From positions 832,001 through 896,000 of the forward strand of contig CAVTBU010000005.1 in assembly GCA_963733035.1 (NCBI GenBank): a DNA stretch of 64,000 bases, given 5' to 3'. The DNA is from Pirellulales bacterium (GTDB lineage Bacteria; Planctomycetota; Planctomycetia; Pirellulales; PALSA-1355). Position numbers and translations under genes: made by a program. The notes under the pieces are model-generated. The model was not told where the DNA came from. It worked only from the letters and a program-made list of their open reading frames with translations, and did no database searches. Shown one piece after another: positions 4,830 through 11,891 of the stretch. The first letter of the stretch is position 1. Every line of letters begins with the position of its first letter.

Positions 4830-5978
4830 CTAGATATTCGTCCAGCCGGACTGAGGCGTGTTGAACACCTGCGGCGTTACGCTGCCTTGCAGTTGTGCAA
4901 CGTCTGTTTCGGCAGCGGAAACACCCTTTGTATCGGTGAGGAATTCCAGTTCCGTCTCGAACCTCGCCGTGGCGCCAGGGGCCAGTTCCACGAATCGTCT
5001 TTGTTCGCCTTCGAACGAGCGGGGATTAGGGAAGTTCGTCCCCGGTTCGAGTCCGGTCACGTAGCCATCGGCCTCGTGCGCGGTATTCTTCCAGAGCGTG
5101 AAACAAGGGAACTGCTTCGTGCTGTATCTCAGACTCACACCGGCAGTGCCGTGGGCATTTTTCAACAGCACATGCGTCCTGCCGGCCGTGTCACATGCGA
5201 GCTCGAAGAAATAGACCTGCTCTGTGAAGCCGGCCTGCGGTGCCGCGTAATTCTGCCAACTGGCAATTCCTTCCGCCGCCCGTGGATCTCGGGGCACGAT
5301 GGCTTTGACCGGGGCGACAATGCAAGCGCCTGCGTCGAGCACGGGAGGACCGAAATTGATGTGATAGAGGAGTTGCAATTCCGCCGAATTCCCGGATAGG
5401 TTCGTCACCTCGTCGACCACCGACAGTCCATTCTGGCCGACCGTCGTCGTATAGGTCGACTTGAGGCGAAGTTGGTGAAACAAGAATCGCGTTTCATCGA
5501 CCAGGCCGCTGACGCTCAATTCACCGGTGCCGTCGTCGGCCGAAACCTCGACGTGATGCGCCGGCAGGTTTGCAATTCGGCCATGGAGCGGGTAGCGCAA
5601 CCTGCCGCTGGAGTCAAAATCAGGCGCTCCATTGTTAATCAGCCCGCAACGGCAGAGCAATTCATCGAAGCCTTCGAGCCAGCCCAGGCCGCTGGGCTCG
5701 CTGAGCGGTACAAACTGCGGATGGACGGGGCCTTTGACCGGCGAATTCCAACCGTACTGAAACTTCCCAATCCGCGCTTTCCACAGCCCCATGCCGCGGG
5801 TCGGAACTACGCTAAACCGCAAGTGCCCGTTGTCAACTTCAATCACGTCCACACCCTCGCGCTTGCCACCGCGGAGGGTCTGCCGCCGAACCGAGAAGTC
5901 GGTCCCTTTTGGGCTTTGAAACTCGGGCTCATGGATTCGCTGCTCGGAATCGGTGAGGACCCAAATGCTCTGCGCCAT
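4830..5978 (-). CDS. Aldose 1-epimerase-like protein (DUF4432)
   Basis: PTRGMG, LHGRIANLPA, LYHINFG and GLEPGTNFP motifs. Confidence 0.85.
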   Translation of the reverse strand: MAQSIWVLTDSEQRIHEPEFQSPKGTDFSVRRQTLRGGKREGVDVIEVDNGHLRFSVVPTRGMGLWKARIGKFQYGWNSPVKGPVHPQFVPLSEPSGLGWLEGFDELLCRCGLINNGAPDFDSSGRLRYPLHGRIANLPAHHVEVSADDGTGELSVSGLVDETRFLFHQLRLKSTYTTTVGQNGLSVVDEVTNLSGNSAELQLLYHINFGPPVLDAGACIVAPVKAIVPRDPRAAEGIASWQNYAAPQAGFTEQVYFFELACDTAGRTHVLLKNAHGTAGVSLRYSTKQFPCFTLWKNTAHEADGYVTGLEPGTNFPNPRSFEGEQRRFVELAPGATARFETELEFLTDTKGVSAAETDVAQLQGSVTPQVFNTPQSGWTNI

Positions 5979-6243
5979 GGTGCGATGCTCCGCTTGGGGA
6001 TTCGAGAGGATATTGACGGTCGCAAGCCGTGGATAAGCCGTGCAATGTACGAATTGCGGCCGGCATTTGCCAGGATGAGCCGTGACTTGTCAGTCGCTAC
6101 GCCAGCGAATAAAACAGGGGCTTCCGGCCGGTTGTGGGCCCGTGTAGAGCCCATCCTTCCGTCCACCTAAGTCCCCCGGCTCGTCATGTAGTTGTTTTGC
6201 CGGATCGCCAACCAATACGCTACTCCATTTCAAGAACCAAACC

Positions 6244-7492
6244 ATGGCTACCGCGACTCCCCTGAAACGTGATAACGTCAGTAAGGCACTTTCCGCGGCA
6301 CTCGATGCGGGCGCAGGACTCCTGCGGCTCACGCCAACCTGGGTACCGCGCAGCTTCCTGCATCCTGGCAAGCGGATCAAGTTGGCACCGGGCGATTGGT
6401 ATGCATTTGGGGCGCATCGCGGCGGTATCGACGAACGCTGGTTTGCCAGCACGACTGAGGCGGCCAACGAAAACCGTACGCCGGACGAAGGCCTAAGCTA
6501 CATCACGCACGGCGGCAAGCGGTTCACATTGGCCGATGCGGTGGCTGAGGACGGCGAGCGGCTCATCGGCAAGGCCATGTTCGACAAGTACGAACGGTGG
6601 CCGGTCTACTCGAAATTCTTCGACAACATGGGGCCCATCCCGCATCACATGCACCAGGGCTTCAAGCATGCAGCGCTGACCGGTCAGCAGGGCAAGCCCG
6701 AGAGCTACTACTTTCCGCCGCAATACAACAACGTCGACAACAACTTTGCGTACACGTTCATGGGCCTCGAGCCGGGCACAACCAAGGCCCAGCTTCGCAA
6801 ATGCCTGGAAGACTGGCACAAGGGAGACAACGGCATCCTCGATCTGTCGAAAGCCTATCGCCTGAAGCGGGGCACGGGCTGGCTGATCCCTCCGGGCGTG
6901 CTGCATGCCCCGGGCTCACTGTGCACTTACGAACCCCAGTGGGGCTCCGACGTGTTCGGCATGTTTCAGTCTCTGGTCGAGGGACGCGAAGTCCCCTGGT
7001 CGCTGCTGGTCAAAGACGTTCCCTCGGACAAGCACCAGGATCTCGACTTCATCATCGAACAGCTCGACTGGGAAAAGAACGTCGACACGCATTTCAAGGA
7101 GCATAATTACCTCGAGCCAATCGTTGACGCATCACGTAGTGGCAATGGTTGCACCGACCGCTGGATCGTCTACGGCACAATCGACGGCGAGCAACTCTTT
7201 ACGCGCCAAGGAACTGACGCTCGAGCCGGGCGCCAAGTGCACGCTCAAAGATCCCGGCGCCAGCGGCTGGATCACCGTGCAAGGCCGTGGCCGGATCGGG
7301 AAGCTGGCCCTGCAAACGCCCGCCATGATCCATTTCGGCGAAGAAACCGAGGACGAGGTGTTCATCACGCACGAGGCCGCCAATGCCGGCGTCGAAGTGG
7401 AAAACACCGGCAGCGAACCGCTGGTCAGCCTACGCTACTTTGGGCCCAACACGCACAAAGACCTGCCGGCCGTTGGGGACTATTTGAAGTAG
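6244..7492 (+). CDS. Cupin-fold, mannose-6-phosphate-isomerase-like protein; frameshift at about 7202
   Basis: PHHMH...GKPESYY...LHAPG metal-binding cupin motifs. Continues in another frame as AKELTLEPG...DYLK*. Confidence 0.7.
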
Positions 7493-7498
7493 GAGGGT

Positions 7499-7608
7499 AG
7501 TGATTGGTGATTAGTGGTTAGTGGTTGGTGTGCAGCAAACAGGCACCAATACGCCGCGGCACCATCACAACGAATCTCCTTCGCACTAACCACTAATCAC
7601 CAATCACT
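7499..7608. repeat. Perfect 25-bp inverted repeat of RGTGRTT heptamers enclosing 60 bp
   Basis: 7499-7523 AGTGATTGGTGATTAGTGGTTAGTG is the exact reverse complement of 7584-7608. Confidence 0.95.
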
Positions 7609-7609
7609 C

Positions 7610-8649
<1,040 letters not shown>

Positions 8650-8650
<1 letters not shown>

Positions 8651-9130
8651 GTGATTGGTGGTTGGTGGTTAGTCACACGATGAATTCAGGTGCTGGATAC
8701 GCATCGTGGACAGGAAACCCTCGGAACCGAAGATCCAATCTTTCCGCGACTTGGTCGTTTGGCAGCGTGCGATGGTACTGGCCGAGCGAGTTTACGCGGT
8801 AACACAGGATTTCCCGAAAGCAGAAACTTACGGACTCACCGCCCAGATGCGGCGAGCGGCCGTTTCGATTGCGAGCAACATCGCCGAAGGACAAGGCCGC
8901 AACGGCAGGAGGGAGTTGCTACAATTCCTGGGGCACGCGCGAGGACCTCTCGCAGAGCCGAACACTCAAATCATGTTGTCCGCCCGACTGGGCATGTGCT
9001 CCGTGGAAAGCGAACGGGAACTCACCAGTTTGGCCACCGAAGTGGGCCGACTACTCAACGCCCTGCGGACTTCACTGAAAAAACTCGACGACGACTCCCA
9101 CTAATCACTAACCACCAATCACCAATCACT
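8650..9130. mobile_element. Putative insertion cassette: four-helix-bundle gene flanked by 24-bp heptamer inverted repeats
   Basis: Left arm 8650-8673 AGTGATTGGTGGTTGGTGGTTAGT pairs with right arm 9107-9130 (23/24, the mismatch being a G-U pair). Mobility is inferred. Confidence 0.6.
8706..9104 (+). CDS. Four helix bundle protein (23S rRNA intervening-sequence protein family)
   Basis: [42 protein letters not shown] signature. Confidence 0.93.
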
Positions 9131-10288
9131 ATGTCCAAACCTCTCAATATCGGCATGATCGGCTACGGTTTCATGGGCCGGGCTCACTCCAACGCTTATC
9201 GGCAGGTGAGCCAGTTTTTCCAGCGCGAGTATCGGCCGGTGCTCAAGGCCTGTTGTGCTCGCAAGGAAGACAAGATCAAGGCATTTGCTCAAAACTGGGG
9301 CTACGAGTCCTATGAGACCGATTGGCGGAAGCTGATCGAACGGAAAGACATCGACGTAATCGACGTGGGATCGCCAAATAACACGCACAAGGAGATCGTG
9401 TTGACGGCCGCCAAGGCTGGCAAAATGATCCTCTGCGAGAAGCCGCTGGCCATGAACATCGCCGAGGCCGAGGAGATGTGTGAAGCGGTCGAGAAGGCTG
9501 GCGTGGCGAACATGGTGTGGTTTAACTACCGCCGCGTACCCGCCATCTCGCTGGCCAAACAGGTCGTCGACGAAGGCCGCATCGGCAAGCCATTCCACTA
9601 TCGGGCCACGTATTTGCAGGATTGGACGATTGCCAGCGACGTGCCGCAAGGCGGAGCGGCGCTGTGGCGCCTTGACGCGAGCGTGGCCGGCTCCGGCGTG
9701 ACCGGCGATCTGCTTGCCCACTCGATCGACACGGCCGAATGGCTAAACGGCCCAATCGCCCGCGTGACGGCTGCCACCGAAACGTTCGTTAAAGAACGTC
9801 AGCATGCCGAAACCGGCAAAATGCAGCCGGTTGGCATCGACGACGCCTGTATGTTCCTGGCGGTGTTCAAGAACGGATCGATGGGCACGTTCGAAAGCAC
9901 CCGCTACGCCCGCGGACGCAAGAACTACAACACGTTTGAGCTTAACGGTGAGGCGGGCAGCGTATTCTTCGATCTGGAAGACCCACAGTACCTGCAGTAT
10001 TTCAAGTACTCCGACCCCAAGACCGGCACGAAAATCGAGAGCCACCTGACCGGCTGGCAAAAGATCCACGTCACAAATCCCGAGCATCCCTACATGAGTC
10101 ACTGGTGGGTACCCGGCTGCACGATCGGCTACGAACACACCTTCATCAACGCCTTGGCCGACTTTCTGGAAAGCCTGGAAACCGGCAAGCCCGTTCAGCC
10201 CGACTTCCGTAGCGGGCTGCGGACGCAGAAGGTATGCGACGCGGTGCTGAATAGCGCCAAAAGTGGCGACTGGGTGGAGATCGCTTAA
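9131..10288 (+). CDS. Gfo/Idh/MocA family oxidoreductase
   Basis: IGYGFMG Rossmann motif, [20 protein letters not shown]. Confidence 0.93.
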
Positions 10289-10378
10289 TCACTTTTGTTC
10301 GGCCGACTTGAGCAATACGACGCGTCATCTGGTTTGAAAACGTACGTAGGCGCGCGATGTGGCACCGGAGCAATGCGA

Positions 10379-11023
10379 ATGAACTATTTCGCTCATGGGT
10401 GCCAATTCGTTCACGAGCCGTACTTTCTTGCCGGCACGGCGCTGCCGGATTGGCTGAACGTGGTCGACCGGCGGCTGCGGGTGCGTACCAAGCATGCGCT
10501 GCCCCACGTCGGCGTTTCCGACCGGGCCGTCTCCCAACTCGCGGCGGGCATCGTGCGGCATCATGCGGACGACGCGTGGTTTCATGGCACGCTGGCGTTT
10601 GCCGAATTGTCGCTCGAGCTGTGTCGAATGCTGCGTAGGGATCTGCCGGCCGACGACGGCTTTCGACCGCACTTTCTGGGACACATCCTGGTTGAAATCC
10701 TGTTGGATGCGGAACTGATTGCGGAGGATCCCGCTCGGCTGGAGACCTACTACGCCGCACTCGACAACCTCGACGTCCAGTTGGTTGCCATGGCGGTGGA
10801 GCGAATAGCTCCACGGCCGGCCGAGAATCTCGCCACATTCATTGGCCTGTTTTCCCGCGAGCGGTTCTTGTTCGACTATGCCGACGATGGCAAACTGTTG
10901 TTTCGCTTGAACCAGGTGATGCGCCGCGTGGGCCTACCGCTGTTACCGGCCCCCATGGCACAGACGTTGGGCGCGATGCGGCCCTTGGTACGCCACCGCC
11001 GCAAGGAATTACTTCCAAGTTAG
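10379..11023 (+). CDS. Hypothetical protein, ACP-phosphodiesterase-like His/Asp motifs
   Basis: MNYFAH...GTALPD...GIVRHHADDAWFH...HILVEILLD. Confidence 0.55.
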   Translation: MNYFAHGCQFVHEPYFLAGTALPDWLNVVDRRLRVRTKHALPHVGVSDRAVSQLAAGIVRHHADDAWFHGTLAFAELSLELCRMLRRDLPADDGFRPHFLGHILVEILLDAELIAEDPARLETYYAALDNLDVQLVAMAVERIAPRPAENLATFIGLFSRERFLFDYADDGKLLFRLNQVMRRVGLPLLPAPMAQTLGAMRPLVRHRRKELLPS

Positions 11024-11051
11024 CCACCAAAACGCTTCGGAGATTCCCCCG

Positions 11052-11891
11052 ATGAAATACGGCATGAACCTGTTGTTGTGGACCGGCGACGTGACGGATG
11101 AGCATTTGCCGGTGCTCGAGAGTTTGAAAAAGATGGGTTTCGACGGTGTGGAGATTCCGATGTTCGCCCCAGATGCAGACAAGTTTGCCAGGCTCGGCAA
11201 GCGGCTCGACGCGTTGGGGCTAGCGCGAAGTGCCGTGACGGTTCGCAACGCGGCCGACAATCCGATCAGTCCGGACGCCCAGATCCGCGCCGCCGGCGTG
11301 GAGGCCAATAAGCGGATTCTTGATAGCTGCCAGGCCCTTGGCGCGCACACACTAGTCGGGCCATACCACTCGGCCATCGGCGAATTCACGGGGGTCGGCC
11401 GCACCGAGAACGAATGGAAGTGGGGAATCGACAGCATGCGACAGGTGGCCGAGCATGCGGCGAAGTGCGGGGTGACGCTGGGCGTGGAGTACCTCAATCG
11501 TTTCGAATGCTACTTCCTCAACACGGCCGCCGACGCGGTCCGATTTGTCGAGGCAGTCGGGCACCCCAACTGCAAGACGATGTACGACACGTTCCATGCC
11601 AACATCGAGGAAAAGAACCCAATCCAGGCCATCCGTACGGCGGCCCCACATACGGCCCTGATTCACATCTCGGAAAACGACCGCAGCACGCCAGGCCAGG
11701 GCAACATTCCGTGGGCCGAGACGTTCCAGATGATCAAGGAAACTGGCTATGACGGCTGGCTAGTAATCGAAGCCTTCGGCCTGGCGCTCCCCGAACTGGC
11801 GGCAGCCACCAAGATCTGGCGTAAGATGTACGACAGCGAGGAGCAGCTCGCCCGCGAGGGCCTGGCGTTCATGAAGCAGCACACGAGCTAG
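11052..11891 (+). CDS. D-psicose/D-tagatose 3-epimerase family protein
   Basis: EYLNRFE, DTFHANIEE, HISENDRSTPG and VIEAF motifs. Confidence 0.9.
   Translation: MKYGMNLLLWTGDVTDEHLPVLESLKKMGFDGVEIPMFAPDADKFARLGKRLDALGLARSAVTVRNAADNPISPDAQIRAAGVEANKRILDSCQALGAHTLVGPYHSAIGEFTGVGRTENEWKWGIDSMRQVAEHAAKCGVTLGVEYLNRFECYFLNTAADAVRFVEAVGHPNCKTMYDTFHANIEEKNPIQAIRTAAPHTALIHISENDRSTPGQGNIPWAETFQMIKETGYDGWLVIEAFGLALPELAAATKIWRKMYDSEEQLAREGLAFMKQHTS

Follow-up and report, generated by a model that had tools for sequence, protein, structure and literature searches.

What is a gene of the 23S rRNA intervening-sequence protein family doing inside a sugar-type operon, where, together with two repeat arrays, it fills the entire space between the stop codon of one gene and the start codon of the next? 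The question is raised by a 64,000-nucleotide stretch of the genome of a Pirellulales bacterium (GenBank assembly GCA_963733035.1, contig CAVTBU010000005.1, forward-strand positions 832,001 to 896,000), which is referred to below as the window and in which positions are counted unless another contig or locus is named. The gene belongs to Pfam family PF05635 (23S_rRNA_IVP) and encodes a four-helix-bundle (4HB) protein, the fold being taken from the family name. It lies at the junction, here called J2, between a xylose-isomerase-like TIM-barrel gene (TIM) and a Gfo/Idh/MocA oxidoreductase gene (Gfo). We find that the J2 element is one resident copy of a widespread cassette, made of a PF05635 gene and a hairpin of heptamer arrays, and that this layout is general in the gene family.

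The whole 480-nucleotide (nt) gap between TIM and Gfo is a single unit, which consists of a left arm, a 32-nt leader, an open reading frame (ORF) of 132 amino acids (aa) and a right arm. A repeat search recovers arms of 24 nt each (AGTGATTGGTGGTTGGTGGTTAGT on the left) that are 96% complementary and spaced by 433 nt, and their units fit the heptamer RGTGRTT. The sole mismatch places a left G opposite a right T, which is a G-U pair in plus-strand RNA; in these three respects the original prediction, made from the letters of the window alone, is confirmed. The left arm begins at the final A of the TIM stop codon TAA (8648-8650), and the right arm ends at 9130, the base preceding the Gfo ATG (9131-9133), so that the predicted span from stop to start is real and only its end, put at 9131, was off by one. 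The right array is longer than the arm and permits a second register, in which 8651-8673 pairs with 9100-9122 at 91% complementarity. When RNA is folded over 8630-9150, the arms are paired in both the minimum free energy and the centroid structures (z -4.24; 0 of 100 shuffles as good). The passenger gene was said to be unrelated to its sugar-type neighbours (PF01261 and Gfo/Idh/MocA), and this is borne out. Likewise in agreement with what had been claimed, no transposase or target duplication was seen by eye in the cassette, whose flanks read GGAAATA / arm...arm / ATGTCC with no direct repeat. In short, the PF05635 gene sits between inverted 7-nt arrays, with the G-richer arm on its 5' side, and this is how we define the layout.

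The generality of this layout was assessed in two sets of loci. In the related set, 88 PF05635 places were fetched from 30 of 40 related genomes, the gene being located by a purpose-built profile. Of these, 72 were usable, having a full-length gene and flanks of 150 nt or more on both sides; the remaining 16 had partial matches or flanks that were too short and were left out. Each locus was scored by the best ungapped inverted repeat between its two flanks, with the arm search limited to 300 nt from the gene and the threshold (11) set at the 95th percentile of 300 cross-locus pairings. Own-pair inverted repeats exceeded this threshold at 51 of the 72 loci. The broad sample comprised the best 80 of at least 596 matches in contigs taken at one genome per species; an alignment of 22 sequences had no usable conserved stretch, and the profile used here was built from nine closer ones. 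It includes Acidobacteriota, Planctomycetota, Chloroflexota, Verrucomicrobiota, Proteobacteria, Clostridia and Bacteroidota, and 63 of its 78 usable loci passed the threshold. The arms are tandem period-7 arrays whose unit varies from locus to locus (GAGGTTA, CGGTAGG, GAAGGCA, CATTTGT and others). Heptamer arms on other members of the 4HB family had been foreseen, and both samples bear this out. The original prediction had also named three observations that would speak against it, namely a repeat-free gene in all relatives, a family without arms and arm ends placed at random relative to the flanking codons; none of the three was made. In the full-text literature (subscription-only papers and supplements lie outside this scope), no paper was found in which PF05635 genes are connected with heptamer inverted repeats at their flanks.

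Several variants of the layout were observed. In two related genomes (G019 and G005), the cassette includes a second ORF, of 172-193 aa, after the 4HB gene (L102:403-918 in G019; L113:1462-2040 in G005), and the right arm follows past this ORF, about 650 nt away; the sole match of the second ORF is a weak one, to NOV_C, below the cut-off. One PF05635 subfamily (L057, L058, L059, L061, L064, L066 and L069) has no arms around the gene and, in these seven loci, which were viewed by eye and not scored, seems to carry a short heptamer hairpin wholly upstream, about 120 nt from the gene. Its C-rich arm opens with a shared CTCCTGCGGTC-like motif, and its proteins are 70-93% identical yet have non-homologous flanks. 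Around PF05635 genes at L169, L179 and L180 (Acidobacteriaceae, Tepidisphaerales), the arm units are of 8 nt instead of 7 nt (AGCGAGTC, AGCGACGA).

The window holds a second hairpin of the same heptamers, one gene upstream of the cassette at junction J1 (7499-7608). It is a perfect 25-bp stem closing a 60-nt loop without an ORF, it folds at -63 kcal/mol (z -7.88; 0 of 200 shuffles as good), and it starts 6 nt past the TAG stop at 7490-7492 and ends 1 nt short of the TIM ATG. Arrays with at least three units of this heptamer are confined to the J1 and J2 hairpins in the 6.6-Mb genome, and therefore their presence at the two junctions is not chance. The genome contains a single PF05635 gene and six period-7 arrays in total. 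A dispersed repeat family in this genome was considered and rejected, as there are just the two adjacent hairpins and one solo C-rich array elsewhere. The solo array (CCACTAx) lies outside the window at G000:C5:2385702-2385726, where G000 denotes this genome; a second array follows about 25 nt further, and no G-rich complementary partner was found within 1.5 kb. The features at the two junctions are collected in Table 1.

Table 1. Features of the conserved gene1-TIM-Gfo block and of its two hairpins, by position in the window.
Feature	Position	Strand	Basis or remark
First gene (gene1) of the conserved gene1-TIM-Gfo block	6244..7492	+	
Left (G/T-rich) arm of J1, AGTGATT GGTGATT AGTGGTT AGTG	7499..7523	+	
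J1 loop, no ORF	7524..7583	+	
Right (A/C-rich) arm of J1	7584..7608	+	
Xylose-isomerase-like TIM-barrel gene (PF01261)	7610..8650	+	start ATG 7610 judged from orthologs
Left arm of the J2 cassette hairpin	8650..8673	+	repeat search, RNA fold
Leader, left arm to GTG start of the 4HB gene	8674..8705	+	no sigma-70-like promoter found
4HB gene, 132 aa, PF05635 (23S_rRNA_IVP)	8706..9104	+	sole copy in genome
Right arm of the J2 cassette hairpin (array 9099-9130)	9107..9130	+	ends at the base before the Gfo ATG
Gfo/Idh/MocA oxidoreductase gene	9131..10288	+	profile match

Two further observations concern J1 and the gene before it. Compared with the intact 416-aa ortholog of G003, gene1 has a 1-nt insertion at 7202 that splits it into two frames; the extra base is either a frameshift or an assembly error. 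By eye, the J1 loops of this genome, G001 and G016 appear homologous, though that of this genome has diverged strongly from the other two. G001, G002 and G003 are congeners of G000.

Gene and arms change together. The operon-resident 4HB proteins form one clade (95/96), within which G001 pairs with G016 (100/99) and not with its congener G000, while TIM puts G000 with G001 (99/93). For the 4HB protein, the approximately unbiased (AU) test rejects a G000+G001 group (p 0.0017), and synonymous divergence (dS) between these two genomes is saturated for the 4HB gene versus 0.71 for TIM. Because the G000 and G001 copies are more diverged than their hosts, cassettes have been swapped, and the trees indicate that in at least one lineage the cassette was exchanged for a deeper-diverged copy. 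The arm units match the protein tree, being xGTGxTT in G000 and xGGGxTT in both G001 and G016, and within each of these three genomes the variant found in the J2 cassette recurs in the gene-less J1 hairpin. Their hairpins still fold at -46 to -59 kcal/mol despite the diverged loops. More broadly, the more two proteins have diverged, the greater the distance between their heptamers, which climbs steadily from 1.29 (protein identity of 70% or above) to 3.68 (below 30%); where one genome has multiple cassettes, each has its own heptamer; and closely related hairpin-type cassettes occupy homologous flanks. By these comparisons, gene and arms are transmitted together and diverge together, and the sequence of the arms changes without loss of their complementarity.

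At which level, RNA or DNA, is this complementarity kept? The original prediction expected covariation biased toward G-U pairs, and this expectation failed. Read as sense RNA, the arm mismatches comprise 54 G-U against 52 A-C in the 51 loci of the related set and 86 against 96 in the 63 loci of the broad sample, 140:148 in total. Such symmetry is expected of neutral transitions or of arms copied from each other as DNA, and not of selection on a sense-RNA stem. Because the G-U bias is absent, DNA-level copying would fit the pairing of the arms better than selection for RNA pairing. Metagenome contigs about 92% identical to this locus carry an extra AACCACC or CCAACC in the J1 right arm, at 7587 and 7592 (the comparison used four DNA runs, each covering a small share of the stretch 7300-9500, whose uncovered parts are uninformative). 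The insertion of a whole unit, together with the concerted G/T difference in four arms, fits slippage plus template switching or conversion.

The cassette nevertheless has a direction. G outnumbers C in the 5' arm at 47 of the 51 loci of the related set and at 54 of the 63 in the broad sample, which leaves the A/C-rich arm as the sequence before the next start codon, and flanking genes whose orientation could be decided are mostly co-oriented with the 4HB gene (34/40 upstream, 30/38 downstream). By crude ORF calls, with a biased rule that takes the first in-frame ATG, GTG or TTG as the start, the gap from stop to arm falls within -9 to +8 nt at 31 of 47 loci and the gap from arm to start is 17 nt or less at 29 of 50. 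The claim that arms end near the flanking codons, more often than residual spacer would allow, is upheld by the stop-to-arm gaps. Polarity, co-orientation and codon-hugging arms point to a strand-specific constraint linked to expression. One further idea about the arms was rejected. Heptamers are not universal stop signals, as 31 of 114 left arms are stop-free versus a shuffled expectation of 33.2, and an excess of arms closed in all three frames is explained by periodicity alone.

We favour the following mechanism. A promoter and terminator scan gave nothing above shuffled expectation, with no promoter-like and no plus-strand terminator-like site in the cassette; for this reason read-through from the operon is probable, and the cassette would be transcribed along with its neighbours from no promoter of its own. 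Host RNase III would then cut the 24-25-bp stems, as it does in 23S rRNA intervening sequences of like build. For example, a PF05635-bearing intervening sequence in helix 45 of Coxiella burnetii 23S rRNA is excised by RNase III, according to the accessible part of the report (PMC4990558). Excision is favoured because the host has an RNase III gene, because stems of 24-25 bp suit the enzyme and because the Coxiella sequence is removed in this way; for the present element it is predicted by analogy, and we hold it tentatively, at somewhat less than an even chance. Cutting would free a small 4HB mRNA and leave Gfo with a short A/C-rich leader, and the insert would therefore be tolerated. The complementarity of the arms would be maintained in the DNA: units would slip within an array, and one arm, or one of the two hairpins, would be copied from the other through template switching or conversion. 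Selection for RNA pairing would not be what keeps the arms matched.

An alternative is that the hairpin stays uncut and couples translation. The stem would join the TIM TAA to the Gfo ATG, and a terminating ribosome would melt the base of the stem and either free the start codon or be handed over to it. Stop and start codons do abut the base of the stem at J2, and also at the J1 hairpins of G000 and G001, and the gap counts given above are of the kind that coupling would call for. Gfo lacks a Shine-Dalgarno-like stretch upstream, because the arm abuts its ATG, whereas the empty alleles described below have AGGA or GAGGA 8-13 nt 5' of the ATG. But coupling through an RNA stem sits poorly with the missing G-U bias, and many cassettes leave gaps of 50-270 nt, the arm-to-start measure itself being biased. 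Moreover, a 24-bp duplex in a cell that bears RNase III should be cut and not persist. It also counts against coupling that hairpin-mediated ribosome transfer is not known in bacteria. We consider this explanation unlikely.

The history of the operon junctions bears on a second alternative. The gene1-TIM-Gfo block is conserved in relatives, and the 4HB gene stands directly 3' of the TIM ortholog in at least seven genomes (G000, G001, G016, G023, G019, G005 and G017), in which the arrays reach within 0-13 nt of the flanking stop and start codons. By its coordinates, a 4HB copy with three in-frame TGA codons occupies the TIM-to-Gfo junction of G007. The junction before TIM holds a 4HB gene in G024, a broken copy in G006 and gene-less hairpins in G000, G001 and G016. 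G002 and G003 have plain spacers of 64 and 81 nt with no heptamers; empty alleles at the orthologous junction, which had been anticipated, do exist. On the TIM protein tree, all carriers fall within one 15-genome clade (99/99), and the empty pair is nested among them as (G000,(G001,(G002,G003))), with supports of 99/93 and 98/85. A recent insertion into an empty site, the simple reading and the one implied by the original prediction, is rejected, as the cassette is shared at this junction across genera and carriers surround the empty alleles. Because the empty pair is nested among carriers, the cassette is old at this junction, and the empty alleles are most simply taken to be secondary. Replacement by an empty allele seems likelier than precise deletion for G002 and G003, because no heptamer remnant is found in their spacers.

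Other inserts were seen at the same two junctions. A putative Uma2 endonuclease gene and a DUF4058 gene (L114:518-1294 in G029; L116:651-1445 in G026) occur there, and the two junctions seem to be landing places for single-gene inserts. An ORF without a Pfam match separates the left arm from the 4HB gene in G024 (L107:3334-3705); its start repeats the N-terminus of that genome's own 4HB protein, which suggests a duplicated or interrupted 4HB copy. In G031, a 234-aa ORF before TIM (L126:641-1342) has a repeated segment on both sides and no Pfam match at E 0.01.

Could the cassette then be a DNA-level mobile element? MITEs (miniature inverted-repeat transposable elements) and repetitive extragenic palindromic (REP) elements are small intergenic palindromic inserts with gene-less copies, and the present system resembles them in both respects. 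A MITE-like element, or one that depends on a hairpin in single-stranded DNA, would use the arms as terminal inverted repeats for an enzyme encoded elsewhere, or be aided by the 4HB protein, and the gene-less hairpin would be its deletion derivative. The architecture resembles terminal inverted repeats, presence varies among congeners, many different junctions are occupied across genomes, and the two junctions studied here hold selfish-looking small genes (Uma2, DUF4058) in other lineages; the symmetry of mismatch types is also in keeping with it. However, unlike MITEs and REP elements, the cassette has no target duplication (or transposase) that could be seen by eye, it belongs to no high-copy identical family, and its arms differ at every locus. 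One cassette and one empty hairpin are all that 6.6 Mb contains, without identical or near-identical copies. Different cassettes within a genome bear different heptamers, so no single trans-acting enzyme could recognise all of them by sequence; related cassettes are syntenic across genera; and the polarity, with the G-rich arm 5' of the gene, is conserved. On this evidence, mobility of this kind is quite unlikely to be the explanation.

The 4HB protein itself is a clear member of its family. ORF 8706-9104 matches PF05635 across the full profile (positions 1-106 of 106; E 4.1e-34), scoring 117.4 bits where the gathering cut-off is 33.8, and its nearest solved relative is PDB entry 2gsc (XCC0516 of Xanthomonas; E 6.2e-23 over residues 15-125; one entry, five chains). 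The assignment to the 23S intervening-sequence family made in the original prediction thus holds. Of the kinship it proposed with Avd, the accessory protein of diversity-generating retroelements (DGRs), only a weak trace is seen, as the bAvd model PF22296 scores 30.8 bits, below its cut-off of 40. PF05635 proteins have been described as resembling Avd, in the part of the article that is accessible (PMC10053308), and fold and family are related on that account; unlike an Avd gene, however, the present one has no reverse transcriptase among the six neighbouring ORFs scanned (4830-11891), a scan that included no specific search for template-repeat/variable-repeat (TR/VR) pairs. These six are DUF4432, PF01261, Gfo, PF01261, one ORF with no match and the 4HB gene. 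In six pairs with estimable dS, the ratio of nonsynonymous to synonymous divergence (dN/dS) is 0.07-0.17 for the 4HB gene versus 0.06-0.14 for TIM, which indicates purifying selection on the 4HB protein much like that on TIM. Such selection indicates that the protein is made and matters, unlike the decaying Coxiella ORF. Most likely, it would bind nucleic acid as an Avd-like oligomer. As a side observation, of all members of the operon clade the 4HB protein of this genome stands on the longest terminal branch (0.54), and it has GPLAEP at a site that is GSLAEL or GSLSEL in the other eight operon copies.

Selection on the protein, the co-divergence of protein and heptamer with distinct copies within a genome, the long retention of the cassette at one operon junction and the heptamer variant shared by J1 and the neighbouring cassette in 3 of 3 genomes might together suggest a domesticated regulatory module, in which the 4HB protein would bind the stem of its own cassette, in RNA or DNA form, to control the processing, stability or translation of its neighbours while heptamer diversity prevents cross-talk, but co-divergence is equally expected from shared descent alone, two congeners live without both hairpins, and the Coxiella protein appears, in the accessible text, not to be made in vivo (PMC4990558), and we regard such a module as quite improbable.

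How firmly, then, can the favoured account be held? Taken whole, as a widespread resident cassette whose stem is cut by RNase III and whose arms are maintained at the DNA level, it is on balance probable; for the part that comprises layout, generality, co-inheritance, selection, residency and exchange, our confidence is high. The following points weigh against it. The related genomes are kin, and the 51 of 72 loci are not independent events. The cross-locus control itself reaches 25-26, since some loci share heptamers. About one-fifth of loci stay under the threshold, partly through a right arm outside the 300-nt limit (G019, G005) and partly through the subfamily with another layout. Without a G-U bias, the RNA stem is not visibly policed by selection, and this weakens a purely RNA-level function. 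Of the 114 flanks on each side, 71 upstream and 75 downstream left the orientation of the neighbour undecidable. The G000+G001 group in the AU test was picked after the identities had been seen, and dS from 113 codons is noisy, with 3 of 9 pairs saturated. Finally, co-transcription and cutting are steps that we infer.

ORF-bearing intervening sequences in 23S rRNA are found in Leptospira and others as well as in Coxiella, and they are a close parallel in build. As far as the accessible text goes, the Coxiella sequence is of about 430 nt and has a long stem that closes it and a loop that holds a PF05635/S23p ORF, and it was acquired horizontally and then kept vertically, a course that matches the history seen at this operon (PMC4990558). 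The present element differs in lying between PF01261 and Gfo/Idh/MocA genes and not in a 23S rRNA helix, in having a stem of tandem heptamers and in its ORF being under purifying selection, whereas the Coxiella ORF is described there as decaying and not translated (PMC4990558).

Heptamer repeats have been reported in other settings. Intergenic G-rich heptamers occur in Xanthomonas (GGGAATC) and Nostoc (GGGGA(C/T)T), with 70-75 convergent inverted pairs per genome (Rehm 2015, PMC4692102). Like the arrays described here, they are intergenic, have 7-nt units, set a G-rich array facing a C-rich one with a potential stem-loop, and, at positions that are conserved, differ between close relatives in both length and sequence (PMC4692102). 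Unlike them, they are not tied to a 4HB gene in the accessible portion of that paper, whose topic is G-quadruplexes and where the terms 'intervening' and 'hypothetical protein' are absent (PMC4692102). The TAACTGA heptamers of marine Beggiatoaceae (MacGregor 2015, PMC4679880) likewise form intergenic arrays that end near start codons, the largest class ending 1 nt upstream. These are direct repeats, however, with one inverted case, and the portion of the article that is available mentions no 4HB gene and has neither 'helix bundle' nor 'S23' (PMC4679880).

A bolder idea is that the cassette is a self-specifying unit, in which the 4HB protein, as an Avd-like oligomer, would bind its own repeat stem and direct templated rewriting of the arrays, including those of the neighbouring gene-less hairpin. 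We rate it as very unlikely. If true, it would explain why both hairpins share a heptamer variant in each genome, how arms stay complementary with no wobble signature in the RNA and where bacterial heptamer repeats come from, and 23S intervening sequences would be one special case of the class.

The locus offers a natural experiment. Alleles with the full cassette, with a diverged version of it and with nothing at all, as well as a gene-less hairpin, are found within one genus at the same two junctions. Since the wobble bias is missing, complementarity alone should not lead one to take such stems for RNA structures. In a protein-coding operon, the gene-plus-hairpin package seems to be what excised spacers are in some rRNAs, and it links the large 4HB/23S intervening-sequence protein family, the ORF-bearing intervening sequences of rRNA and the over-represented intergenic heptamer repeats into one testable object.

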